64,000 nt of DNA, from assembly GCA_046292385.1 (NCBI GenBank), contig JBKBRF010000004.1:192001-256000 (forward strand), written 5' to 3'. This document shows positions 40,356 through 56,101 of this stretch, piece by piece; positions within the stretch are counted from its first letter, which is position 1; every line of letters begins with the position of its first letter. This DNA comes from Armatimonadota bacterium. GTDB lineage: Bacteria > Armatimonadota > SYMT01. The notes under the pieces were generated by a model that was not told the origin of the DNA, searched no databases, and was given only the letters and a program-made list of their open reading frames with translations. Position numbers and translations under genes: made by a program.

Positions 40356-41723
40356 CTATCCGTCGTTGTTACCCCCGAACGTAGCGAGGAGCCGGCGCAT
40401 CCGGAGCGTGCGGCGGGCGATCACCCGCTTTACGATGGCGCGCAGGCTGCGGGTGTGCTCTTCCGGCAGGTAGTGGAGCGGGATCATCGAGACGATCAAC
40501 AGCACCGCCATCACCAGGAAGAAGATGCGGAAGCGGTCGATCTCCAGGAGGCCCCACTGCACGTTCACTCCCCGCAGCACCTGGAGCAAGTAGCCGGAGG
40601 CGAGGGTCGCGGCGCCGCTGCCGAGTCCGGTGAGCGTGACGCTCAGGGCCACGTAGTGGGCACGGTGGAGCACCGGGATGAATCCCAACTCGAACTTCGA
40701 CATCGAGACGGTAAGCCCGCCGGTGAAGATGCCGATCAGCAGGGAGATGAGGGGCACGCCGAGCCACAGCCAGACGGCGGAGGTGTCGGTAAGGAGCCAG
40801 AGCGCCAGGCTCCCCGCGATTCCGGCGATGACGAGTCCGAGCACCGGACGCGCGCCGATGCGGTCGGTCCAGCGGCCCCAGGCTACCAGGGTGGCGATGG
40901 CGCCGAGGCTGCCGATCGTGTTGATCGCGATGACGCCCGAGGCGCTGATGTTCAGGCCGTCTCGGAGGAAGACGACGAGGAACGGCGGTACGGCACTGAG
41001 CGCCATGCGCAGGAGCACGGAGAAGAGCAGGAAGCGGCGAAAGATGGCGTCCCGCAGCGGCGCGGTGGCGCGGCTCAGATACTCGCGGTCGAGCGGCTCC
41101 GCCATGGAGCCGACGTCCGGCACGCGCGCCAGGTAGACCAGGCTCCAGGCGGCGGCCACCACCCCGAGGCCGATCACGTGCAGGAAGCGGGTCATGCCCT
41201 CCGTATCGATCAGGTAGAGCGCGGTGATGACGTTGATCAACACGATGCTCGCCTGGCGCAGCCACTCCTGGCGGCTCAGGTAGATCCCGCGGTCGTGGGG
41301 GCGCACGATCTCCTGCACCAGCGGCAGCCAGGAGCTCATCCCGAGGGCGCGGCAGATGTAGAAGCCGAGCATCACCACCAGCAGGAGCTGCGTGCCGGCG
41401 GCGGGGCCGCCCCGGGCCATGGCGACCGGGACCAGGAAGAGCCCGGCGGAGACGAAGGTGCGCGCGCCCCAGCCCGCCAGCATCACCCGGCGGGGGCCGA
41501 AGCGGTTGACGAGCGGCGCCACCACGAGCTGGATTACCGCCGCGAAGGGAAGGAGCGCGGAGAGCAGGCCGATGTCGCCCAGCGACGCCCCCGCCTGGCG
41601 CGCGAACAGGATCAGGATCTGTCCGGCCAGCACTTCGAACGACAGGGCGTTCAGGGCCGTGAAGCGCAGCAGGTTGAGCTTGGCGTGCTCGCGCTCCAGC
41701 TCGTCCAGGTCGTCGCCGTGCAT
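40356..41723 (-). CDS. MFS transporter
   Basis: About 12 TM segments; NRFGPRR and GRWTDRIGAR motif-A loops. Confidence 0.85.
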   Translation of the reverse strand: MHGDDLDELEREHAKLNLLRFTALNALSFEVLAGQILILFARQAGASLGDIGLLSALLPFAAVIQLVVAPLVNRFGPRRVMLAGWGARTFVSAGLFLVPVAMARGGPAAGTQLLLVVMLGFYICRALGMSSWLPLVQEIVRPHDRGIYLSRQEWLRQASIVLINVITALYLIDTEGMTRFLHVIGLGVVAAAWSLVYLARVPDVGSMAEPLDREYLSRATAPLRDAIFRRFLLFSVLLRMALSAVPPFLVVFLRDGLNISASGVIAINTIGSLGAIATLVAWGRWTDRIGARPVLGLVIAGIAGSLALWLLTDTSAVWLWLGVPLISLLIGIFTGGLTVSMSKFELGFIPVLHRAHYVALSVTLTGLGSGAATLASGYLLQVLRGVNVQWGLLEIDRFRIFFLVMAVLLIVSMIPLHYLPEEHTRSLRAIVKRVIARRTLRMRRLLATFGGNNDG

Positions 41724-41856
41724 CTACTCTCCCCCGGCGAAGAGTATCACCGGCAGGCGCTCCGGAACCCCGGCCCGCCGCGAACTGCGGCGCCGGGGCC
41801 GTGGTAAGATGATCTGAGCCCGGCTCCCCGACCGGGTCGTCGACCGAGGAACCTTC

Positions 41857-42540
41857 ATGCCGTCACCGATTCAGGAGCTGCTGGGGCTCAAGTTTCCCCC
41901 TGTCGCCGTCTCGTTCCGACCGGAGGCACCCGCCGGGATCGAGCGGGTGGACCAGCCGGCCTGCGCGGGCTGCTCGTACTGGCGGCTCGCAGCGGAAGGG
42001 AGGGTCTTCTACACCGAAGCCCCGGACCACTACGGCTGTCCGGTCGGCGCGCACACCCACGGCATCCCGCTCCCGCCGCAGCAGGCAGAGGAGCTGGCGG
42101 AGCTGGCCCGGATCATGACCGGCCTGGAGTACGTGACGGAAGCGGAGGTCCAGGCGATGCCGTCGCGCTCCCAGCCGTTCGGCGTGGCGGTCTACGCACC
42201 GCTCGACCGCGCAACCGAGACCCCGGACCTGCTCCTCGTCCGCGGCACCGCGCGCCAGATCATGCTGCTCACCGAGGCGGCACAGGCCGCCGGGGTGGCG
42301 CCGGAGCGCCCCGCGCTCGGCCGTCCGGCTTGCGTCCTCGTCCCGCTCACGCTGGACGGCAGCACCACGGCCACCAGCCTCGGCTGCATCGGCAACCGGG
42401 TCTACACCGGGCTGCAGGACGACGAGCTCTATTTCGCGCTCCCCGGCAGCGCCATCGACGCGGTAACGGAGCGACTGCCGCGCATCGTCGGCGCCAACCA
42501 GGAGCTGGAGAAGTTCCACCGGGCCCGGCAGGGAGCCTGA
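41857..42540 (+). CDS. DUF169 (COG2043) Cys-containing protein
   Basis: PVAVSF, CAGC, GCPVG, PAC, SLGCIGNRVYTGL.DDEL. Confidence 0.8.
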   Translation: MPSPIQELLGLKFPPVAVSFRPEAPAGIERVDQPACAGCSYWRLAAEGRVFYTEAPDHYGCPVGAHTHGIPLPPQQAEELAELARIMTGLEYVTEAEVQAMPSRSQPFGVAVYAPLDRATETPDLLLVRGTARQIMLLTEAAQAAGVAPERPALGRPACVLVPLTLDGSTTATSLGCIGNRVYTGLQDDELYFALPGSAIDAVTERLPRIVGANQELEKFHRARQGA

Positions 42541-42541
42541 T

Positions 42542-42640
42542 AAAGGCTAAAGGCAGAAGGCTAAAGGCAAAAGGTCCGAACCCTTCGTGTACGGGAGGTC
42601 CTGCTCCTGCTCTTACTCTTGCTCCTGCTCGCTGGCGACC
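42542..42640 (+). repeat. AAAGGC(T/A) heptamer array followed by hexamer array with CTCGCTGGCGACC tail
   Basis: Same heptamer plus CCGAACCCTTCG recurs at about 59826-59923. Confidence 0.75.
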
Positions 42641-42822
42641 CGCGATAGTCCGGCGCGTCCGCGTGAACTCGCACTACAAACGGTATCTACAGGCAAAAGG
42701 ATGAACGCTGAACCCCCGACTTCCGGCTGCACTCCCGGCGGTGTCCGGCGTCCGGTAGGAGCCCGGGACGGAGGCTGCTCAGCGCGGACGCCTATTCCCT
42801 CGCGCCGTTGGGAGTGTGCGTC

Positions 42823-44295
42823 TTGACCGGAAGTCAGCAGCCGAGCTTGCGGGCGGCGGGGGGGGTGCTGCTGGTCTCGTTGTATGAGCTGGGCCACCAG
42901 CCGGCGGGGCTCGCCTTTCCCCTGGCGGCGCTGGAGCAAGCCGGGTTCTCGCCGCGAGCGCTCGATCTCTCCGTGGAGGAGCTCGACCCGGAAGCGGTGC
43001 GCGGCGCCGGGTTGATTGCCGTCTCGGTGCCGATGCATACCGCGATGCGGATCGGCGCGGCGGTCGCCGGGCGGATCCGGGCGCTCAACCCGGGAGCGCA
43101 CCTCTGCTTCTACGGACTCTATGCGGTGCTGAATGCCGGCCACCTCCTGGCGACCGCCGACTCGGTGCTCGGCGGCGAGATCGAGCCGGCGCTGGTGACG
43201 CTCGCGGAGGCGTTGGAGCAGGGGGAGCGGGGGCCGATCGAGGGCGTCACGTTTCGTGAGAAGTGGCAGGCAGCCGGCGCCACCGGCACCGCGCCCGCCG
43301 TGCTGCGCCGCGTGGAGCTGCCGGTGCCGAGCCGGGACCACCTGCCGCCCCTGGAGCGGTACGCCCGGCTCGACTACCGGGGCGAGCTGCGGCTGGCGGG
43401 GTACACGGAGGCGACCCGCGGCTGCAAGCACCACTGCCGCCACTGCCCGATCCCGCCGGTCTACGGCGGCCGCTTCTTCGCGGTGCCGGCGGAGACGGTG
43501 CTGGGAGACATACGCCGGCAGGTGACCGCGGGCGCGCGCCACGTCACCTTTGGCGACCCGGACTTCCTGAACGGCCCCACCCACGCGCTCCGGATCGCGC
43601 GAGCGCTCCACGCGGCGCATCCGGAGGTGACGTTCGACTTCACCGCCAAGGTGGAGCACCTCCTGGCACAGGAGACGCTGCTGCCGGAGCTCGCCTCGCT
43701 CGGCTGCCTCTTCATCGTCTCGGCGGTCGAGTCGGTCTCCGAGGATGTGCTGGCGCGGCTGCGGAAGCGCCACACCCGCGCCGACGTGGCCCGGGCCGCG
43801 GCCGCAGCGCGCCGGGCCGGAATCGCGCTGCGGCCGTCGCTGATGCCGTTCACCCCCTGGGCCGGGCTGGACGACTACCTCGACCTGCTCCGGTTCAGCG
43901 TGGAGCACGAGCTGGTCGACTCGCTCGACCCGGTGCAATTCAGCATCCGGCTGCTCGTGCCGCCTGGCTCGCTGCTGCTGGAAGGCGGCGACATGGACCC
44001 GTATCTGGGACCGCTCGACGCCGCGGCATTCAGCTACACGTGGACGCACCCCGACCCGCGGATGGACGCGCTCCACCAGGAAGTGGCGGCCCGGGTGGAG
44101 CGCGCCGCGCAGGCCGGAGAGCCCCCGCGGGAGACGTTCCGCGCTATCTGGTCCGCCGCGCACCGGGCTGCCGGCCTCCCTGACGTCGATCCGAAGCTGC
44201 CGCCGGAGCCGGACGTGAAGCCGCCGCGGCTGACGGAGGCCTGGTTCTGCTGAGCAGAGCCGACCGCGGGCCAGTTGGCCCGCTCTGCGGCGTAA
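42823..44295 (+). CDS. B12-binding radical SAM selenoprotein with CUAEP tail (TGA 44251-44253 read as Sec)
   Basis: CKHHCRHC (CxxxCxxC); N-terminal cobalamin-binding-like domain; frame continues WFC-TGA-AEPTAGQLARSAA-TAA. Confidence 0.88.
44254..44288 (+). promoter_or_regulatory. Bacterial SECIS-like hairpin
   Basis: GCAGA...GCGGGCC-AGTT-GGCCCGC-TCTGC directly 3' of the UGA, with G in the apical loop. Confidence 0.75.
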
Positions 44296-44390
44296 GATGC
44301 GCCCCGCGCATCCGTCCGGCGCCACCCTTACGCTGCCAGGGTGCGCGCCTGCGTTTCGCCCTGCCAGGCCCACCGCGTCGGTGAACCTCG

Positions 44391-46028
44391 TCAATTCGGC
44401 TTCTGCTCGTTCGGTTTCAGGTCCTCGCGAACTCCCGACTCGACGCTTGACGGTTCACCGTCGGCGGAGATGTGGAAGACGTGGCGAACGAATGCCGGCG
44501 TCTTTTCCACGAAGATCCGTACCCGCAGTCGATCCAGTGGAAGCTGATTGGCCAGCCCCGCCAGGCGGCTCGGATCCTCGGCGGCCAGTGCTCCCCGCGC
44601 TCGCGCGTTCGTTCGTGCTACCGAGATTCCGGCCGCAGACCCCGCCTGGCGAAGCTCGGCCGCGCTGAGAGCGTCACGCCAGGCCAGGAACGCCCGGCGT
44701 GCACGGGCGCCGGCGAGCACGACGGGGAACTCCGCGTCAATCAATTGTGCCTGAAGATCGTTCAGACGGGACATTTCCAACAACTCGTCCCAGCCCAGAT
44801 GCCCGTCCCGAGTCCGCACTTCGCGCCAGCGTCGGTGTTGCGTAGCGGGGACTTCACCCAGATCATCGAACGCGAAGCGCCGGTTACGCCAGCGGAGGAC
44901 CAGTCGATCATCATCCACGGCGCACCGATACGCACTCTGCTCCGCGAGCTCAAGCAGTAGGTCTTTCAGAGTCGCAGCGGAAGCCGGGGAGAGCGGCGGG
45001 ACAGGCTTGCGGTGGTAGTAATCGGATGTGAGCGAGCGCCCCAGGACGCGGGCGAGGGAGATCTGGACATCCGCGAGCTCTCGCCAGGAGGGGCGTTCCT
45101 TCTGTAGTTGGCCAGACTGTGCTTCCGTCAGCGTGCCCAGCGCCTCAAGGTTCCCGGATATGGGGTCCTCGGCCGGCTCGCTGAAGCCGAGGGCGGCGAA
45201 TGGGCCACCATTGGAGAAATTCACCCGATTAATGGTGATGCTCGTACCCAGGCGCCACTTGCCCAACGCAGGCTCCAGACGCAGAAACACTCCAATCTCC
45301 GCACTGTCGAGCGCCCCTCGCACTCCATCGCCTCCGAAACGACTAACAAGCAGGGTTTCGAATTGCTGCTTGGCTGGCTCGCTCCATTGAGCCCATGGAC
45401 CCTTCAACTCACCTCCACGAGCCAGATGGTCGAGTTGCTGTGGCGGGAATGTGCCGAGAAGTTGCCCGAGCGGGCGACCCTGCGCCTCCCATTGCTGCGG
45501 AGTCCGGAAGTAAAAGTCAAGCTGTTCGTCCCCCGTGGGTTGTGGGGCTTCGTTCGGATGTGCGCGCGCAAGTCGTATCAAGCGATCCATCCCCGCGCGA
45601 ATACGTGCCGTATCTCGCTCGACCAGCCGCGCGAACTCGTTTCTGGCACGCGGATCCTGCCAGAGCAGGAACTCCGCTTCCCTCGGACGATCCCGCCTCC
45701 ATCTCACGGGGAAGTCGCGCCGGCTCCAAAGCTGCTCCAGGTCGAGCATCGCTTCCCGGGCGGGCCGCTCCTTCCAGAGCACGGTCACATACAGGTCCCG
45801 CAGGTGCTCAACCGCGCCGAATCGCTTGCCGGTAACCTCGGATAGCTTCGCGAGCACCTCGTCCAGCGGGAGTGCCTTGCCCTCCAGGTTGATCTTGGCC
45901 GCCGGCCACTCGCGGGGCACAGAGCCAGCATTACGAGCTTGCTTTGTGCTGGAATCGGCAAGTCCGGCCCCGGTGACAAGGCAGATCAACGCCAGGCAAC
46001 CTGCCGTGAACGCTCGGATATCGAACAT
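44391..46028 (-). CDS. Secreted hypothetical protein (paralog of 10261-12243)
   Basis: Signal peptide; PLDEVLAKLSEVTG; GEVPATQHRRWREVRTRDG.L...L.EM matches paralog; lower GC. Confidence 0.7.
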   Translation of the reverse strand: MFDIRAFTAGCLALICLVTGAGLADSSTKQARNAGSVPREWPAAKINLEGKALPLDEVLAKLSEVTGKRFGAVEHLRDLYVTVLWKERPAREAMLDLEQLWSRRDFPVRWRRDRPREAEFLLWQDPRARNEFARLVERDTARIRAGMDRLIRLARAHPNEAPQPTGDEQLDFYFRTPQQWEAQGRPLGQLLGTFPPQQLDHLARGGELKGPWAQWSEPAKQQFETLLVSRFGGDGVRGALDSAEIGVFLRLEPALGKWRLGTSITINRVNFSNGGPFAALGFSEPAEDPISGNLEALGTLTEAQSGQLQKERPSWRELADVQISLARVLGRSLTSDYYHRKPVPPLSPASAATLKDLLLELAEQSAYRCAVDDDRLVLRWRNRRFAFDDLGEVPATQHRRWREVRTRDGHLGWDELLEMSRLNDLQAQLIDAEFPVVLAGARARRAFLAWRDALSAAELRQAGSAAGISVARTNARARGALAAEDPSRLAGLANQLPLDRLRVRIFVEKTPAFVRHVFHISADGEPSSVESGVREDLKPNEQKPN

Positions 46029-46113
46029 GCTGCCTCCTCGTCGGGTTCTGCGGGTCCGAAGAAGCGGCGCTACCGCGCCAGCGTCTTCGGACCCGTGCGT
46101 GCTGATCCGCGGG

Positions 46114-46671
46114 TTACGGATTGATAATGCTGAAGTTCACCGAATCGCGGACGTAGACCGGCATGTCAGGAGAGGTGAAATCCTGACACCATATCTCCAT
46201 CGACGTGTGCGAGGTATGTCCCCCCGCAGATACCGAGCGGTTTCCGGAGAGCTGGGTGGATGAGACCGTAAAGTAGTCAACTACTCCGCCTTGCAGCACG
46301 TAGGGCGTGGGAGGGAATCCGGTTGTACCCAGTGCATCCACCATGTTCGAAGTGTTGTCGACATACAGCCGCGCCAACACATCCCAGTAGGTGTCTGTCC
46401 ACCAGTTGCCATCGGACAGCACGCCCCCACTGATTGTACCTGCGAAAGCAATATTCATGGACGACGCTCCGCCCGTATGAAATGGATCACCACCTGCGGC
46501 GGGGGTATCGTTTGTGGCGTCTACCGTAATGTAGAAGCCGTTGATGCCCTTGCTGTTGTTCGCAGCTTGGACCGGCGAAACGAGCAGGAGCGTGCCGACC
46601 AGGATGCCCAAGTAGCCAAATGTCCGTAGCATCTTCATCAATCTCCCCATAAGAAGCTCTCCAGAATTCAA
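46114..46671 (-). CDS. Secreted Ser/Thr/Gly-rich beta-strand hypothetical protein
   Basis: Signal peptide ending VQA; lower GC than flanks; start uncertain. Confidence 0.6.
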   Translation of the reverse strand: MNSGELLMGRLMKMLRTFGYLGILVGTLLLVSPVQAANNSKGINGFYITVDATNDTPAAGGDPFHTGGASSMNIAFAGTISGGVLSDGNWWTDTYWDVLARLYVDNTSNMVDALGTTGFPPTPYVLQGGVVDYFTVSSTQLSGNRSVSAGGHTSHTSMEIWCQDFTSPDMPVYVRDSVNFSIINP

Positions 46672-46888
46672 ATTCGCGCTGGAGACACAAACAAGTTAGC
46701 TCCCCCCCCCATATTCCTCTTCTCTCCCGAAAGAATCTTGTCGCACTCATTTGGAGAGCATGGACATGTGAACTCCGGATAGACTCGGAGACACTGTGTC
46801 GTCCGTGCTTGTCGATTCCTACCGGGTGGGAAAGAATAGGGGAGAGAACCCCTTCGGCCGGGTCCCTGGTCGAGGACAGGAGAGAGTT

Positions 46889-47551
46889 ATGGTAGGAGAA
46901 GAGCAGCGCGACGCGGCCGCCGCGGCGCCGGATGCGAGCGACGAGATCCTGAAGATCAGCGAGGTGGCGGCCACCAAGATCCTGGACGTGATGCGCTCCC
47001 AGGACCCGCCGGTCTTCACGCTGCGGGTCTCCTCCCCGGCGCGCGGCAAGTACGCGATGAACCTGGAGCCGGAAGGCACCCCGGCGGCGGACGACACGAC
47101 GCTGGAGTACGACGGCTTTCAGGTCTACGTCGATTCCGACAGCCTGGAAGCGGTGCGGGGCGCCAGCCTCGACTTCGTGATGACGCCGACCGGCGGCGGC
47201 TTCCAGTTCACCAACCCGAACGACGCCCCGCGCGGTGGCGCTCCGCAGCGCAAGGAAGCCCCGGAAGGACCGGAAGGCGACGTCTGGCGCCAGATCCAGC
47301 AGGTGCTGGAAGCCGAGGTGAACCCGGCGGTCGCCTCCCACGGCGGGCGGATCGACCTGATCGAATACAAAGAAGGGATCGCCTACGTCCAGATGAGCGG
47401 CGGCTGCCAGGGCTGCGGCATGGCGGCGATGACCCTGAAGCAGGGCGTGGAGCAGATCCTGCGCTCGCACGTGCCGGAGATCGACGAGATCCTCGACGTG
47501 ACCGACCACGCCGGCGGCCGCAACCCGTACTACGCTTCGTCCACCAAGTAA
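46889..47551 (+). CDS. nfuA: Fe-S carrier NfuA (degenerate A-type domain plus NifU-C domain)
   Basis: Cys-less HesB-like N-domain (GFQFTNPN); VNPAVASHGG, GGCQGC, DVTDH..G.NPYY. Confidence 0.88.
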   Translation: MVGEEQRDAAAAAPDASDEILKISEVAATKILDVMRSQDPPVFTLRVSSPARGKYAMNLEPEGTPAADDTTLEYDGFQVYVDSDSLEAVRGASLDFVMTPTGGGFQFTNPNDAPRGGAPQRKEAPEGPEGDVWRQIQQVLEAEVNPAVASHGGRIDLIEYKEGIAYVQMSGGCQGCGMAAMTLKQGVEQILRSHVPEIDEILDVTDHAGGRNPYYASSTK

Positions 47552-47557
47552 AGCGCG

Positions 47558-48808
47558 ATGCCCCGGCTGCTGCTGCTCGTCCCGAACACCTCTTACCGCG
47601 CGGAGGAGTTTGGGACGGCGGCGCGCCGGCTCGGGATCGAGGTCAGCGTCGCTTCCGAGCGCGCCAGCAGCCTGGCCGGGCAGCGGCCCGCCGACCTCCT
47701 GGCGCTCGACTTCGCCCGGCCGGAAGTCGCGGTCCGGCAGGCCCGGCGCTTCCACTCCCGCTATCCGGTCGACGCGGTCCTCGGCGTAGACGATGCCACG
47801 GTCGAGGCGGCGGCCCACGTCGCGGCGGCGCTCGGCCTGCCGCACAACCCGCCGGAGGCGGTGGCCCGCGCCCGCAGCAAGCTCCGCACCCGGGAGGCGC
47901 TCCGCGAGGCGGGGACGCCGGTGCCCTGGTTCCGCTGCTACTCCCGAGGGGCCCAGCCGGACGGTTTCGCGGAGGAGGTGCCGTATCCGTGCGTGCTGAA
48001 GCCGCTCGGGCTCTCCGGCGGCCAGGGCGTGATCCGCGCCGATGACCCGCGGGAGCTCGCCGCCGCCTTCGAGCGGGTGGGGCGGATCCTCGACCGCGCC
48101 GCGCCGCAGGGGGCGGAGGCCGGATCGATCCTGATCGAGAGCTTCATCCCGGGACGGGAGGTCGCGCTCGACGGGCTCCTCACCGCTGGCGAGCTTCAGG
48201 TGCTCTGCCTCTGGGATAAGCCCGACCCGTTAGACGGTCCTTACTTCGAGGAGACGATCTACGTCACGCCGTCGCGTCTACCCGAGGCCGCGACGGCGGA
48301 GATCGTGAGCCGGGTCCGAGAGGCGGCGCGGGTCCTCGGGCTGCGAGAGGGGCCGGTCCACGCGGAGCTGCGGGTCAACGACGAAGGGGCCTGGCTGCTG
48401 GAGCTGAACCCGCGCTCGATCGGCGGCAAGTGCAGCCGTGCCCTGCGGTTTGGGGCAGGGCTCTCCCTGGAGGAGCTGATCCTGCGGCACGCGCTGCGGA
48501 TGGAGATCCCGAGCCTGGAGCGGGAGCGGGCTGCCGCGGGGGTGATGATGCTGCCGATTCCCCGGGCCGGCGTGCTGGAAGAGGTCCGCGGGGAAGACGA
48601 GGCGCTGGCGGTGTTCGGCATCCGGGAGCTGATCCTTTCCGCGCACCCCGGGCAGGAGCTGGTGCCGCTGCCGGAGGGCTCCGCCTACCTCGGCTTCCTC
48701 TTCGCGCGCGGCGCTTCGCCGACAGCCGTGGAGACTGCCCTGCGCGAGGCCCACTCGCGCCTGGAAGTGGTGGTGCGGCCGGTCGCCGAAGCAGGTCAGC
48801 CGCGTTGA
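47558..48808 (+). CDS. ATP-grasp ligase (L-amino-acid-ligase-like)
   Basis: YPCVLKP..LSGGQGV, IESFIPGRE, HAELR...LELNPRSIGG. Confidence 0.88.
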   Translation: MPRLLLLVPNTSYRAEEFGTAARRLGIEVSVASERASSLAGQRPADLLALDFARPEVAVRQARRFHSRYPVDAVLGVDDATVEAAAHVAAALGLPHNPPEAVARARSKLRTREALREAGTPVPWFRCYSRGAQPDGFAEEVPYPCVLKPLGLSGGQGVIRADDPRELAAAFERVGRILDRAAPQGAEAGSILIESFIPGREVALDGLLTAGELQVLCLWDKPDPLDGPYFEETIYVTPSRLPEAATAEIVSRVREAARVLGLREGPVHAELRVNDEGAWLLELNPRSIGGKCSRALRFGAGLSLEELILRHALRMEIPSLERERAAAGVMMLPIPRAGVLEEVRGEDEALAVFGIRELILSAHPGQELVPLPEGSAYLGFLFARGASPTAVETALREAHSRLEVVVRPVAEAGQPR

Positions 48809-48899
48809 CCGGTTGAACGGTCGCTCAGTATAATCGCTCGCACCTCTGACGGTTTTGCTTGCGCGAGACGCCGGATGGACGGCGTCTCGGAGGAACCCC

Positions 48900-49952
48900 A
48901 TGCGTCGTTCTCTCTCCCTCGCCGCGCTGCTCTTCGCGGGCGCACTCACTCTCTCCGCCTGCACCCCGCCGGAACAGTCCGGGAGCGGCGGTGCGAATGC
49001 CACTGGCGCTGCGGCCAACGGCTCCGGGTCGTCCGAAACGATCACGCTTGGCATGATGCCGAAGCAGAAGGGCATCGACTACTTCAACGCCTGCGAGCAG
49101 GGCGCCCAGGAAGCCGCCAGGGATCTGGGCGACGTGAACCTGGAGTACGACGGCCCGGTGCGCGACGAGTCCGAGCTGCAGAGCCAGAAGCTCGACACCT
49201 GGATCACCCGGAACCTCGACGCGGTGGCGGTCGCCTGCAACGACCCGAACCAGATCTCCACCTCCCTGGCGCGCGCCCGCGACAAGGGGATGACCGCGAT
49301 CACCTGGGATGCCGATGCCAACCCGGAGCAGTCGAAGCGGCAGTTCTTCGTGAACCAGGTCGACTCCCTGGCGCTCTCCCACGCGCTGGTCGACCAGATG
49401 GCGGAGCAGGCGGGTGAAGACGCGCAGGTGGCGGTGGTCAGCTCCTCTCCCACGGCGCCGAACCAGTCGGCGTGGCTGAAGGAGATGGAGACCTACATGA
49501 AGTCGAAGTACCCGCAGATGAAGGTGGTCGACACCAAGTACGCGGGTGAGAACCAGGTGAAGTCGGAAGAAGAGGCCGGCAACCTGCTGAAGGCCTACCC
49601 GGAGCTCGACGGCATCTGGGGCATGACCTCCGTGGCGTTCCCCGGGGCCGCCAGCGCGGTGAAGAAGGCGGGCAAGTCCGGCCAGGTGGCGGTGATCGGC
49701 CTCGGCACGCCGAAGGCGATGAGCGGGTTCGTAAAGGATGGCGTGGTGAAGACCGTCACGCTCTGGAACCCGGTCGACCTCGGCTACCTGACCGTGCACG
49801 TGGCGCGCGCGGTCGCGAAGGGAGAGCTGAAGCCGGGCGCCACCAGCTTCACGGCGGGTCGGCTGGGCGAGGTGAAGGTCGACGGCGACATGGTGCTCCT
49901 CGGCAAGCCGATGGTCTTTGACGCCAAGACCATCGACGACTACCAGTTCTGA
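48900..49952 (+). CDS. Sugar/AI-2-type ABC substrate-binding lipoprotein (LsrB/RhaS-like)
   Basis: Lipobox LSAC; PKQKGIDYF, TWDAD, LWNPVDLGY; no adjacent permease. Confidence 0.85.
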   Translation: MRRSLSLAALLFAGALTLSACTPPEQSGSGGANATGAAANGSGSSETITLGMMPKQKGIDYFNACEQGAQEAARDLGDVNLEYDGPVRDESELQSQKLDTWITRNLDAVAVACNDPNQISTSLARARDKGMTAITWDADANPEQSKRQFFVNQVDSLALSHALVDQMAEQAGEDAQVAVVSSSPTAPNQSAWLKEMETYMKSKYPQMKVVDTKYAGENQVKSEEEAGNLLKAYPELDGIWGMTSVAFPGAASAVKKAGKSGQVAVIGLGTPKAMSGFVKDGVVKTVTLWNPVDLGYLTVHVARAVAKGELKPGATSFTAGRLGEVKVDGDMVLLGKPMVFDAKTIDDYQF

Positions 49953-52801: not shown

Positions 52802-53224
52802 CTAATGCGGCGTTTCCTTCACCACGTTCCGGTTCCAGGCCGGCACCTCGATCACGACGTCGGAGGTTCCGTTCGGGATGCACTGGCACGCGAGGCGGGA
52901 CTGGATCGTCAGGCCGGGGGCCTCCTCCAGCTGGTCCAGCTCGTCGTCGGTCTCCTCGTTGCAGGAAGTGAGCCCTTCCTTGACGATGATGTGACAGGTA
53001 GAGCAAGCGCAAACGCCGCCGCAGGTGTGCTCGATCTCGATGTCGTTCCCGAGCGCGATGTCGAGAATGCTGCCCGGCCGGCCGGTCCGCTGGTAGGGGA
53101 TCTGCTCCGGGTCGACCTCCACCTCGCGCACCTCGTTCGTCTCCTGGATGCGGTAGGTGATCTTGTACTTCTGCTTCGGCAGGTCGGCTGCGGCCTGCTT
53201 GATGTAAGGATTGGTTCCGGCCAT
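52802..53224 (-). CDS. fdx: ISC-type [2Fe-2S] ferredoxin
   Basis: IEHTCGGVCACSTCH...SRLACQ. Confidence 0.92.
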   Translation of the reverse strand: MAGTNPYIKQAAADLPKQKYKITYRIQETNEVREVEVDPEQIPYQRTGRPGSILDIALGNDIEIEHTCGGVCACSTCHIIVKEGLTSCNEETDDELDQLEEAPGLTIQSRLACQCIPNGTSDVVIEVPAWNRNVVKETPH

Positions 53225-53226
53225 CG

Positions 53227-55155
53227 CTATCTTACTCCCTCGCCGGCGGAGGGGCGGCGCAGATCGCTCGCGGCACCCTCGACCGTCTTTCCTTCCAGCG
53301 CGGCCTGCACCGCGCGATCCATCACGAGCGCGGCGAGCTTCCGCGTCGCCAGGTCGAGCTCTTCGATCCGCTGGCGGATGAGCTGGTGGTCTTCGTCGCC
53401 CGCCACCTCCCGGAGCGCGTCGAGCGCCGTGCGCACGTTCTGCAGTTCTCGCGCGTCCATGCTACCTTCCGCCACGAACTGCTCCCCGAGCGGGAGCTGC
53501 TTCTCGGTGGCGAGGATGACCTGGCTCGCCTCCACCCGCGCCTCCGTGATCTGGCGGAGGCGGAGATCGCTCTCGGCGTGCTCGAACGAGTCGATGATCA
53601 TCTGCTCGACTTCGTCATCGGTCAGCCCGTAGGAGGGCCTCACTTCGATCCGGGCCTCGGCCTCGCTGCGGTGCTCGTAGGCGGAGACGGCCAGGATGCC
53701 GTTCTCGTCGACCATAAAGGTCACTTCGAGCCGCGGCCAGCCGGCCGGCATCGGCGGGATGTGGATCTGCAGGTCCGCGAGCGACCGGTTGTCCGCCGCC
53801 ATCTCACGCTCGCCCTGCACCACGTGGATCTTGAACGCGGTCTGCCCCTCCACGCCGGTGGTGAAAACCTGCCGCGCGCTGGTGGGGACGGTGCTGTTGC
53901 GCGGGATCAGCTTCTCCACGGCGCCGCCGTAAGTCTCGATGCCGAGGGAGAGCGGGATCACGTCGAGGAGCAGCAGACCCTCCACGTCGCCGGCCAGGAT
54001 TCCGGCCTGAACGGCGGCTCCGAGGGCCACCACCTGCTCCGGATCGAGCTCCGTATGCGGGCGCGTCCCGAAGATCGCCTCCACCAGCCGCCGTACGTAG
54101 GGGACGCGCGTGCTGCCGCCGACCAGCACCACTTCGTCGATCTCCGCCCCCGTGAGCCCGGCGTCTTCCAGCGCCTGCTCGCACCGGATGCGGGTCCGCT
54201 CCGCCACCGGCGCGATGATCCGCTCCAGCTCGGTCCGGGTCAGCTCGCGGGTAAAGGCGCCGGCGCCGACCGGAATCGCGATCGTCGTCGTTTCGGCGTC
54301 GGTCAGCGCCTTCTTGGCGTCCTCCGCCGCGATCCGGACCCGCTCCCGCAGCGACGGGTCCTGCCCATTCACCTCCGGGAACTGCGCGAGCAGCTCCGGC
54401 AGAATCGCCTGGTCGCCGAGGACGCGGTCGAAGTCGTCACCCCCCAGGTGCGTGTCGCCGTTGGTCGACTGGACCTCGAAGACGCCGTCCCGCAGCTTCA
54501 GGATCGAGATGTCGAAGGTGCCGCCGCCCAGGTCGTAGACCGCGACGGTGCCCTCTTTCTTCCGGTCGAGCCCGTAGGCGAGGCAGGCGGCGGTCGGCTC
54601 GTTGACGATCCGCAGCACCTCCAGCCCGGCGATGCGGCCGGCGTCGCGAGTCGCCTGGCGCTGGCTGTCGTTGAAGTAGGCGGGGACGGTGATCACCGCC
54701 TGCTCCACCGGCTCGCCCAGGTACTCCTCCGCCCGCCGCTTCAGCTCCCGCAGGACCTGCGCCGAGATCTCCGGCGGGGTGTAAAGGCGGTCGCCGACCT
54801 TGATCCGCACCACTTCCCGGTGCTCGTCCGAGATCTCGTACGGCAGCCGGGAGCGCTCCTCGGCCACGTCCTCCAGCCCGCGGCCCATCAGGCGCTTCAC
54901 GGAGTAGATCGTCCGCGTCGGCGCGTCGTAGAGGTGGTGGCGCGCGTCGTCTCCGACCAGCGCCGAGCCGTCGGCGGTGAAATGGACCACCGACGGCAGG
55001 ACCGGGTCGCCGTCCGGACCCGGAATCACCACCGGCTTGCCGTCCTGCATGCAGGCGACGAGGCTGTTCGTGGTCCCCAGGTCGATCCCCACGATGCGGG
55101 GCTCCCGGTGCCGGTGCGCCCCCGCCAGGGGCAGCGGTATCTTCGATGTGCTCAT
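53227..55155 (-). CDS. hscA: Fe-S chaperone HscA (Hsp70)
   Basis: [32 protein letters not shown]; lies between hscB and fdx. Confidence 0.92.
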
Positions 55156-55251
55156 AATCTTTGTTTGCAGGCTGGACCGGCTGCACCCCGCACGTCGGCA
55201 GCCCCGGTCATCCACAACCGTTCCCGGCGTACTGAATGCCCCCCCGCCGAA

Positions 55252-55492: not shown

Positions 55493-56101
55493 CTATCCAG
55501 CTCCCACCGCGGCGTTCAGGCTGTTCAACACGCGGCGGAGGTAGGCGCGGTCGGCGAGCACCGTGCGGATCTCGCCGAGCACGCGTGCGCGTTCCGGAGC
55601 GTCGCCCGAGTCGGAGAGCGCGTCCCATCGACGGAACAGCTCGCCGGTGAGGCGCTCCACCCGGCTATCCAGCTCCGCCTGCAGCCGGTCGCGCTTCTCC
55701 CGCAGCGCCGCGGCCAGCGACTCTCGCTCTTCGGGGTCGGCGAAGCGGTGCTCGCCCAGGAGCTCCTGCACCTCCAGGATCTCGTCGAACAGCTCCTGCG
55801 GGGGCGCGTCCTTCGCCGGCTCTCCCGTGCTCTCTTCCAGCGTCAGCAGGTAGGCGGCGCGCTCGAACGGGTCCCGCAGCGTGCGGTAGGCCTGGTTCAC
55901 CTTGGAGGAGCTCTCCAGCGCCCCGATCCGCTCGCGCGCGGTGGCCGCGCGATAGAGGTCTGGATGGTAGCGGCGGGAGAGCTCGTGGTAGACCGGCTCC
56001 AGCGCCTTCGGGTCGAGCGTCAGCTTCCGCGGCAGTCCCAGCACCGCGAAGTAGTCCGCGTCACGCGGCAGCGGCTCGGCTCGAGTCGGCTCGTCAGGCA
56101 T
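55493..56101 (-). CDS. hscB: Co-chaperone HscB
   Basis: J-domain DYF.VLGL...YHPD...NQAYRTLRDPFERAAYLL; helical C-domain. Confidence 0.9.
   Translation of the reverse strand: MPDEPTRAEPLPRDADYFAVLGLPRKLTLDPKALEPVYHELSRRYHPDLYRAATARERIGALESSSKVNQAYRTLRDPFERAAYLLTLEESTGEPAKDAPPQELFDEILEVQELLGEHRFADPEERESLAAALREKRDRLQAELDSRVERLTGELFRRWDALSDSGDAPERARVLGEIRTVLADRAYLRRVLNSLNAAVGAG

Follow-up and report, generated by a model that had tools for sequence, protein, structure and literature searches.

We analysed a stretch of 64,000 nt from the genome of an Armatimonadota bacterium (contig JBKBRF010000004.1 of assembly GCA_046292385.1, forward-strand positions 192,001 to 256,000), which as a whole is called the window below. 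Between its positions 41857 and 48808 lie four genes on the plus strand. They encode a DUF169 protein, a radical S-adenosylmethionine (SAM) enzyme with an in-frame TGA near its end, an NfuA-like carrier and an ATP-grasp ligase. In this study, we describe the radical SAM enzyme and the gene module to which it belongs, follow the module across related genomes, and weigh what it might make. The features of the module in the window are these:

41857-42540, plus strand: DUF169 protein, 227 amino acids (aa); PF02596 at 91.2 bits, above the gathering cut-off of 27
42865-44297, plus strand: predicted CUAEP-tail radical SAM selenoprotein, 476 aa from GTG 42865; NF040546 and PF04055
44251-44253, plus strand: in-frame TGA, read as selenocysteine (Sec), U463 of the 476-aa radical SAM protein
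44266-44283, plus strand: hairpin of the selenocysteine insertion sequence (SECIS) type, 7-bp stem GCGGGCC/GGCCCGC, loop AGUU
46889-47551, plus strand: NfuA-like iron-sulfur (Fe-S) carrier, 220 aa; PF01521 and PF01106
47558-48808, plus strand: ATP-grasp protein of the predicted L-amino-acid-ligase type, 416 aa; ATPgrasp_N, ATP-grasp_4 and LAL_C2

The original prediction, drawn from the letters of this DNA alone, had pointed to these genes and coordinates, to the in-frame TGA, to a gap of 6 nt between the end of the nfuA-like gene (47551) and the ATP-grasp ATG (47558), to a divergent major facilitator superfamily (MFS) transporter gene, to a lower-GC insert and to an isc operon about 2 kb downstream; all of them are present. 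The likeliest start of the radical SAM gene is GTG 42865, which has a G-rich stretch upstream and coincides with the start of the family profile, TTG 42847 and TTG 42808 being the alternatives. For the Nfu gene, whose reading frame is open from 46796, the likeliest start is ATG 46889, which is preceded by an AGGAG Shine-Dalgarno sequence and yields 220 aa, the median length of the homologues.

A radical SAM enzyme with a predicted selenocysteine tail

In the NCBIfam profile search, the radical SAM protein fell into NF040546, the family of CUAEP/CCAEP-tail radical SAM (seleno)proteins, with 669 bits against a cut-off of 500. A six-frame search of the genome with the same profile gave 683.3 bits with one TGA inside the match, and PF04055 was found at 53.9 bits. 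With the TGA read as U, the protein ends in ...EAWFC-U-AEPTAGQLARSAA, followed by TAA at 44295-44297. An alignment of 44 CUAEP-family sequences revealed that the invariant cysteines are the cluster triad C187/C191/C194 (CX3CX2C) and the tail pair C462-C/U463, and that C281 is at least 90% conserved. The tail pair is embedded in the likewise invariant context E458-x-W460-x-C-[C/U]-A-E465-P466-x3-Q470. This family comprises at least 8000 sequences at E <= 1e-30, from soil, sediment and water bacteria of many phyla, and because it is so large its correct assignment matters for many uncultured lineages.

The predicted decoding of TGA 44251-44253 as Sec is well supported, because conserved residues follow the codon, Cys replaces it in a good number of homologues, a covarying hairpin lies behind it and the genome holds selA, selB and tRNA-Sec. 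We compared the window with 80 homologous genome loci, and 79 of these 81 have the tail motif W[FY]C[U/C]. At the Sec column of the 79, 51 homologues, counting the window, have TGA and the other 28 have Cys; the residues AEPTxxQ after this column are conserved in both groups. The hairpin of the window begins 12 nt after the UGA. When loops of 3-7 nt were allowed at this fixed place (a fixed register with a 4-nt loop proved too strict), a hairpin of at least 5 bp (mean 6.5) was found in all 49 TGA homologues with enough downstream sequence, and its loop, about 20-26 nt after the UGA, is mostly AGUU(G) or AGGU(G). Covariation is extensive, as the 5' arm occurs in 35 distinct sequences, every one of them paired by its own 3' arm. 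Stems of this length are reached by only 10 of the 27 Cys homologues, whose mean is 4.2 bp (Mann-Whitney p = 3e-9 versus the TGA homologues). The minimum free energy of the whole region after the TGA did not separate Sec from Cys homologues (p = 0.18). As for the decoding machinery, SelB (367.5 bits), SelA (577.9 bits) and tRNA-Sec (66.6 bits) all exceeded their cut-offs in the window's genome, where the tRNA-Sec gene adjoins selA.

The public record of this protein is 468 aa long (42847-44250) and stops at the Cys before the TGA. It therefore contains neither the Sec nor the conserved AEPT tail.

The AlphaFold2 model of the enzyme has a mean predicted local distance difference test score (pLDDT) of 94.6 and a predicted template modelling (TM) score of 0.92; for residues 461-470 the pLDDT is only 65. 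The modelled fold is a Rossmann-like N-terminal domain with a radical SAM barrel, as in class-B-type enzymes. Its nearest solved folds are AprD4 (E 2e-20, TM 0.68/0.71), then TsrM, OxsB, MgmA, CysS, TokK and MiaB; the methylthiotransferases MiaB and RimO are both among its structural neighbours, and no ArsL structure is among the solved-fold matches listed. AprD4 is not known to use cobalamin. For the first half of the label "B12/radical SAM" in the original prediction the signals are mixed: PF02310, the B12-binding domain, is below threshold in the window protein (none at E <= 0.001), and it is precomputed in most of the 120 homologues listed.

Partners of the enzyme and their linkage across genomes

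The ATP-grasp protein is, by its domains and alignments, of the L-amino-acid-ligase type and the constant partner of the radical SAM enzyme. ATPgrasp_N (50.8 bits), ATP-grasp_4 (114.8 bits) and LAL_C2 (57.9 bits) all exceeded their cut-offs, and the same three Pfam domains make up BL00235 (PDB 3VOT) and BacD (PDB 3VMM/3WNZ). Residues 21-406 align with the solved L-amino acid ligase BL00235 at E 4e-42 and more weakly with BacD (E 4e-10). No curated NCBIfam model matched at its cut-off, the best being PRK02186 (138 versus 625). Ligases such as BacD, RizA, TabS and DdaF couple a carrier residue with a warhead amino acid. To our knowledge, these ligases serve dipeptide antibiotic pathways together with other warhead-forming enzymes, and never with a radical SAM selenoprotein.

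We followed the linkage of these genes in two samples, 80 genome loci seeded by the radical SAM gene and 80 metagenome loci seeded by the ATP-grasp gene. The latter are the closest relatives of the query and not mutually independent, and counts of related loci include such kin; moreover, short contigs hide neighbours and only part of the neighbour clusters was scanned against Pfam. All-against-all clustering of the open reading frames (ORFs) within 8 kb of the radical SAM gene, ranked without this gene itself and its shadow ORFs, revealed that ATP-grasp is the commonest neighbour (49 of 81 loci, the window counted). It lies at a median gap of 130 bp and on the same strand in 45 of 50 cases. 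The next clusters were Nfu (25 loci), Iron_traffic/PF04362 (18), DUF169 (10) and a class-V aminotransferase (9), and LipB/LipA genes were near the radical SAM gene in 9 of the 81. Iron_traffic is a YggX-like Fe(2+)-trafficking family (for example L058:545-898), and the class-V aminotransferase (Aminotran_5) is cysteine-desulfurase-like. When the window proteins were searched by tblastn against the 80 loci seeded by the radical SAM gene, ATP-grasp was found in 48, Nfu in 27 and DUF169 in 9; the MFS transporter, the two proteins of the insert and a sugar-binding protein encoded downstream were found in none.

In 53 loci the sequence extends for 3 kb or more to either side of the radical SAM gene. 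Within 3 kb of this gene, 35 of them have ATP-grasp, 22 have Nfu and 7 have DUF169, and 15 have none of the three. Thirteen of these 15 partner-less genomes (one of them, G040, unpublished) still carry an ATP-grasp orthologue, with 44-55% identity and 187-425 bits, and in G040 and G042 it lies about 4-5 kb from the radical SAM gene. In two genomes the orthologue is in two adjacent pieces (G039:C1:139908-141145 and G042:C1:1397786-1398981, the latter about 4.5 kb from the radical SAM gene), for which a frameshift, a pseudogene or an assembly error are possible causes. We also looked for an alternative conserved partner at the 15 loci, where the 51 neighbour ORFs scanned against Pfam proved heterogeneous (Tex, SDR, ABC transporters, regulators) and none was recurrent.

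The linkage is reciprocal. Twelve of the 13 ATP-grasp-seeded metagenome loci with at least 3 kb on both flanks carry the radical SAM gene, the exception being L110. Directly upstream of ATP-grasp there is a DUF169 (29) or Nfu (13) gene in 41 of the 44 loci with at least 800 bp of upstream sequence, and the commonest gene orders in this sample are radical SAM-DUF169-ATP-grasp and radical SAM-Nfu-ATP-grasp. In 52 of the 80 metagenome loci (for example L129:1799-2233, minus strand), a convergent gene some 85 bp downstream of ATP-grasp encodes a conserved protein of about 144 aa. This protein belongs to no Pfam family and did not turn up in the genome of the window, and we set it aside as probable lineage synteny.

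Adjacency of the radical SAM and ATP-grasp genes occurs in all three major supported clades of a quick maximum-likelihood tree of 44 radical SAM sequences, and under at least 12 phylum labels. Placements in this tree disagree with taxonomy, which indicates horizontal transfer. The module is rare within the phylum of the window, where NF040546 exceeds its cut-off in 2 of 251 genomes (G000 and G016), and an ATP-grasp orthologue (E <= 1e-40) is present in the same 2 of 251. The radical SAM orthologue was found in none of 6 genomes of the same family, and DUF169 in none of 30 relatives. In G016 the Nfu and ATP-grasp genes are adjacent as in the window, and the radical SAM gene is on a separate contig of 2.2 kb.

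Altogether, the radical SAM gene with its predicted Sec and the ligase-type ATP-grasp gene form a mobile functional unit. The co-orientation of four genes alone could be due to chance, and it is the comparison with 160 related loci and 251 genomes that takes the linkage beyond it. The arrangement in the window is derived: DUF169 stands upstream of the radical SAM gene, and 2.5 kb with two unrelated genes interrupt the unit. Neither of these insert genes is conserved with the module. These findings agree with the proposal in the original prediction of one uncharacterised pathway comprising DUF169, a Cys-Sec radical SAM enzyme, NfuA and ATP-grasp. The gene-neighbourhood check suggested there for CUAEP/CCAEP homologues returned a conserved ATP-grasp linkage with recurrent Nfu and DUF169, not an absence of linkage. 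The divergent MFS transporter, also listed in the original prediction, finds no support as a member of the pathway: its gene was found in 0 of the 160 related loci (tblastn E<1e-5) and belongs to the local context only. It may be an exporter in this genome but is not conserved with the module.

Nfu and DUF169 recur as helpers of the unit and may substitute for one another. The Nfu protein consists of a Cys-free A-type N-terminal domain and a C-terminal Nfu domain with CQGC. This two-domain architecture and its CXXC bear out the name NfuA given in the original prediction, whereas the score does not, at 117.6 bits versus the TIGR03341 cut-off of 269.35 (117.7 bits in the genome search). Unlike NfuA carriers, the gene of the window sits inside a specialised module, and many loci have a short Nfu domain only, or DUF169 instead. 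It is the only two-domain NfuA-like gene in the window's genome.

The DUF169 protein is probably a metal- or Fe-S-binding helper of the radical SAM enzyme. C39, C61, C159 and C177 are invariant, together with D57-H58, among 29 module-linked homologues. Its AlphaFold2 model (pLDDT 92.8) could not be assigned to a fold, as Foldseek against the PDB gave no match at E <= 0.001 and the top matches of VIA-align among 48,161 chains, to thiolase-like chains, reached a Z of 4.4, no more than noise. In-frame fusions of the radical SAM enzyme with DUF169, 757-765 aa long, were found on metagenome contigs of one closely related lineage (L153:1054-3333, L172:1925-4222 and L174:3710-5983). They consist of a CCAEP-tail radical SAM part, a linker of about 35 residues and DUF169, and the CC motif is internal. 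The DUF169 gene is single-copy in the window's genome. The family is wider than the module, being present in 3 of 14 control genomes that gave 0 of 14 for NF040546. The accessible parts of three papers mention the context of DUF169 genes in passing: next to hgcA in Nitrospina, in co-occurrence with yedE, and next to SepRS (10.1101/648329, PMC5322559, PMC8762117).

Relationship to ArsL and possible chemistry

After NF040546, the best NCBIfam match of the radical SAM protein is ArsL, the radical SAM enzyme of arsinothricin biosynthesis (NF040542, E 2e-89), which aligns residues 20-432 with profile positions 1-413 of 423 and so takes in the whole profile bar the RCCLKC tail. The next family, HpnR, follows at 50.7 bits, and PhpK-type and C-methylase families of RiPPs (ribosomally synthesised peptides that carry post-translational modifications) are other weak matches. 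The enzyme is classed here as a member of NF040546 and not of ArsL, because its ArsL score (300.7 bits) is below the cut-off of 450 and its tail is CUAEPT..., not RCCLKC (CCxxC). Judged by profile scores, ArsL is by far the closest characterised family and the window enzyme is its paralogue.

The two enzymes have in common an N-terminal Rossmann-like domain, a radical SAM core with CX3CX2C and, close to the C-terminus, a vicinal Cys pair. Unlike ArsL, whose tail RCCLKC offers three thiols, the CUAEP family has the tail W[FY]C[U/C]AEPTxxQ with two thiol/selenol ligands, the second Cys often being Sec, and about 50 extra residues ahead of this tail. The partners also differ: the constant one here is an L-amino-acid ligase, and those of ArsL are the methyltransferase ArsM and the permease ArsQ. 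No CX3CX2C radical SAM enzyme other than ArsL is so far known to make a 3-amino-3-carboxypropyl (ACP) radical. Although its motif is canonical, ArsL cleaves the C-gamma-S bond of SAM to give methylthioadenosine (MTA) and the ACP radical, which adds to As(III); its C-terminal CC-containing tail binds As(III), and without the RCCLKC tail SAM is still cleaved but product formation is abolished (bioRxiv 10.1101/2024.02.01.577332). The ArsL family is small, with 147 sequences counted in the same study, and the CUAEP-tail family is much larger. According to the accessible part of another report, arsenic is bound by all three C-terminal Cys of ArsL (bioRxiv 10.64898/2026.04.29.721666). The idea of a metal(loid)-binding Cys-Sec tail, already put forward in the original prediction, gains support from this behaviour of the closest characterised relative. 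The accessible text of Haft 2022 (10.1101/2022.07.06.499078) proposes a heavy-metal contact for the rare vicinal CU dipeptide of HgcA, SAO-locus proteins and MerT selenoproteins. This motif is common to those proteins and the present enzyme; the folds and contexts are unrelated, and no mercury genes were seen beside the CUAEP module.

That a functional module exists is well shown by the linkage data. For its chemistry, the explanation that we favour, at a probability of roughly 0.4, is a horizontally mobile module of two to four genes in which an ArsL-like ACP transfer to an atom held by the tail is followed by ligation of the product. SAM would bind at the [4Fe-4S] cluster of the CX3CX2C motif, which is present, and an ArsL-like C-gamma-S cleavage, suggested by homology, would generate the ACP radical. 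This radical would then attack a soft atom held on the vicinal Cys-Sec pair, possibly with the near-invariant Cys281; candidates for this atom are metalloids, As(III) for example, and chalcogens. The expected product would be a 2-amino-4-X-butanoate, an analogue of methionine or glutamate. Such an alpha-amino acid fits a partner of the L-amino-acid-ligase type, as might be expected to follow an enzyme whose product is a free amino acid; going by its family, this ligase would couple it to a second amino acid with ATP. Nfu would supply or repair the cluster, and DUF169 may deliver electrons, a cluster or the substrate atom. As to the captured atom, arsenic has precedent, and the Fe-S- and sulfur-trafficking neighbours mean that it may also be sulfur or selenium.

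Several observations weigh against this explanation. The ArsL score does not reach its cut-off, and the tail has two thiol/selenol ligands versus the three Cys of ArsL. No arsenic-related family was noticed among the commonest neighbour clusters, of which only some representatives were Pfam-scanned. The recurrent neighbours are Fe-S-trafficking genes, which agree equally well with a metalloid, with chemistry on sulfur or selenium, or simply with a large demand for clusters. Two of the 15 partner-less genomes, G033 and G041, whose completeness is not stated, gave no ATP-grasp match. Finally, a few ATP-grasp loci (L110, L151, L183 and L186) have Nfu and no radical SAM gene in the available flank.

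The main rival is a canonical mechanism, in which a 5'-deoxyadenosyl radical, possibly with cobalamin after the fashion of class B methylases, modifies a small peptide or amino-acid conjugate made first by the ATP-grasp enzyme, and the tail acts as a redox or hydrogen-atom relay and does not hold the substrate. The C-terminal GCUG of thioredoxin reductase is such a redox relay, and a Cys/Sec swap at a single position is typical of redox-active sites. The class-B-type fold with AprD4, TsrM, OxsB and MgmA as neighbours, the precomputed PF02310 of most homologues listed and the weak HpnR, PhpK-type and RiPP C-methylase matches would fit it too. However, the bit score for ArsL is six times that for any methylase family, PF02310 stays below threshold in the window protein, and the module was not seen to be accompanied by a conserved gene for a precursor peptide or by a second biosynthetic enzyme, and on balance we hold this mechanism to be rather improbable, if the strongest competitor. 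A sub-variant of the explanation favoured above, with sulfur or selenium as X, is less probable again. Here the tail would carry a (seleno)persulfide, or a sacrificial cluster would provide the atom, with loading via Nfu, DUF169 or a cysteine desulfurase. The radical would form a C-S or C-Se bond, and ACP plus sulfur or selenium would yield, for example, (seleno)homocysteine or a derivative, which the ligase would then conjugate. NfuA is known to rebuild the cluster that lipoyl synthase sacrifices, the structural neighbours include MiaB and RimO, an isc operon lies 2 kb away in the window, and Fe-S- and sulfur-trafficking genes accompany the enzyme across lineages (Nfu within 3 kb in 22 of 53 loci, Iron_traffic in 18, Aminotran_5 in 9 and LipB/LipA in 9 of 81). 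Yet several of the neighbours, LipA/LipB among them, stem from a single group of close relatives within the Chloroflexota and may reflect lineage synteny. Moreover, the enzyme has no conserved Cys triad for an auxiliary cluster, as only C462, C/U463 and the near-invariant C281 are found outside the SAM motif, and ArsL itself works without an auxiliary cluster (bioRxiv 10.1101/2024.02.01.577332).

It could also be argued that the four genes are chance neighbours, with nfuA serving general Fe-S assembly beside isc and ATP-grasp being independent. In the window the genes form two blocks parted by 2.5 kb of opposite-strand genes, which calls for at least two transcripts; the NfuA-like gene is the sole one of its kind in the genome, and some Nfu/ATP-grasp pairs have no radical SAM gene nearby. 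The linkage data contradict this explanation and make it very improbable, since adjacency is conserved reciprocally under at least 12 phylum labels, the radical SAM and ATP-grasp genes co-occur in the same 2 of 251 genomes, 13 of the 15 unlinked cases still have ATP-grasp, and the radical SAM enzyme is even fused to DUF169 in some loci.

The ArsL-like explanation can be taken further, to a reading that is possible and which we would not call likely. The CUAEP module would then be a widespread pathway in which the ACP group of SAM is joined to arsenic, antimony, selenium or tellurium on the Cys-Sec tail and the product is ligated into a dipeptide, with DUF169 as a new class of metallochaperone or Fe-S partner. 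The dipeptide might act like bacilysin or bialaphos, as a Trojan-horse antimetabolite, or it might be a carrier of selenium or a metalloid, new and of low molecular weight. If this held, CUAEP-tail enzymes would be a second and far larger CX3CX2C family generating ACP radicals, and would make a carbon-heteroatom bond new to biology outside arsinothricin. More generally, if ArsL chemistry is shared, non-canonical cleavage of SAM and the formation of carbon-metalloid or carbon-chalcogen bonds would be far commoner than thought, and many uncultured lineages would produce an amino acid or dipeptide that is not yet known.

We would class the module as a variant among ArsL-type systems, set apart by its tail, its Sec and its downstream enzyme. 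In the accessible text of Haft 2022 (bioRxiv 10.1101/2022.07.06.499078), the only source within the searchable literature where the family name or accession turned up, NF040546 is described as uncharacterised and no gene context is given. Our search of this searchable literature on CUAEP, NF040546, ArsL with ATP-grasp, DUF169, and the ACP radical with selenocysteine found no description of a function or neighbourhood, and no paper joining ArsL-type enzymes with ATP-grasp ligases. New in this study are the conserved ATP-grasp/Nfu/DUF169 module and a proposed ArsL-based mechanism for a family that had previously only been catalogued. DUF169 gains its first firm functional partner. Besides, the compact set of three to four genes is directly testable, and the natural versions with a Cys tail spare the expression of a selenoprotein.

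Surroundings of the module in the window

The genes around and between the two blocks of the module are the following:

40356-41723, minus strand: MFS transporter gene; PF07690 at 83.8 bits
44391-46028, minus strand: insert ORF 1, 545 aa
46114-46671, minus strand: insert ORF 2, 185 aa
50876-59275, minus strand: isc operon, with IscS 57926-59275, HscB 55493-56101, HscA 53227-55215, Fdx 52802-53224 and an IscX match at about 50.9 kb

The MFS gene is divergent from the DUF169 gene, with 133 bp between them. The insert ORFs sit in a trough with a GC content of 0.55-0.64, flanked by 0.70-0.75 on either side. Neither protein matched a Pfam or NCBIfam family, and both have signal-peptide-like N-termini. 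In the ESM Atlas, the 545-aa protein resembles clusters of hypothetical proteins that are commonest in Armatimonadota (score 0.96), and the look-up of the 185-aa protein returned nothing usable. Promoter, terminator and repeat scans of the insert flanks found no mark of a mobile element and no flanking repeats. An Rfam scan of 41000-49500 at E <= 1 gave only one chance match of 14.5 bits.

Downstream of ATP-grasp, a sigma-70-like site at 48805-48834 (TTGACC, 18 nt, TATAAT; 11 of 12 consensus positions) precedes the next gene. A site of this strength implies that ATP-grasp is the last gene of its unit. The gene that follows, up to 49952 on the plus strand, encodes a periplasmic binding protein of the rhamnose/AI-2 type (TIGR02637 at 254 bits, below the cut-off), and this is the sugar-binding protein found in 0 of the 80 loci seeded by the radical SAM gene. 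The end of the isc operon is reached about 2.07 kb past the ATP-grasp stop. The operon looks complete, the stretch from 56.1 to 57.9 kb between IscS and HscB being unannotated in this analysis. Its IscX-matching ORF is listed with 313 aa, of which only the last 60 residues or so match IscX; the listed start is probably too far upstream.

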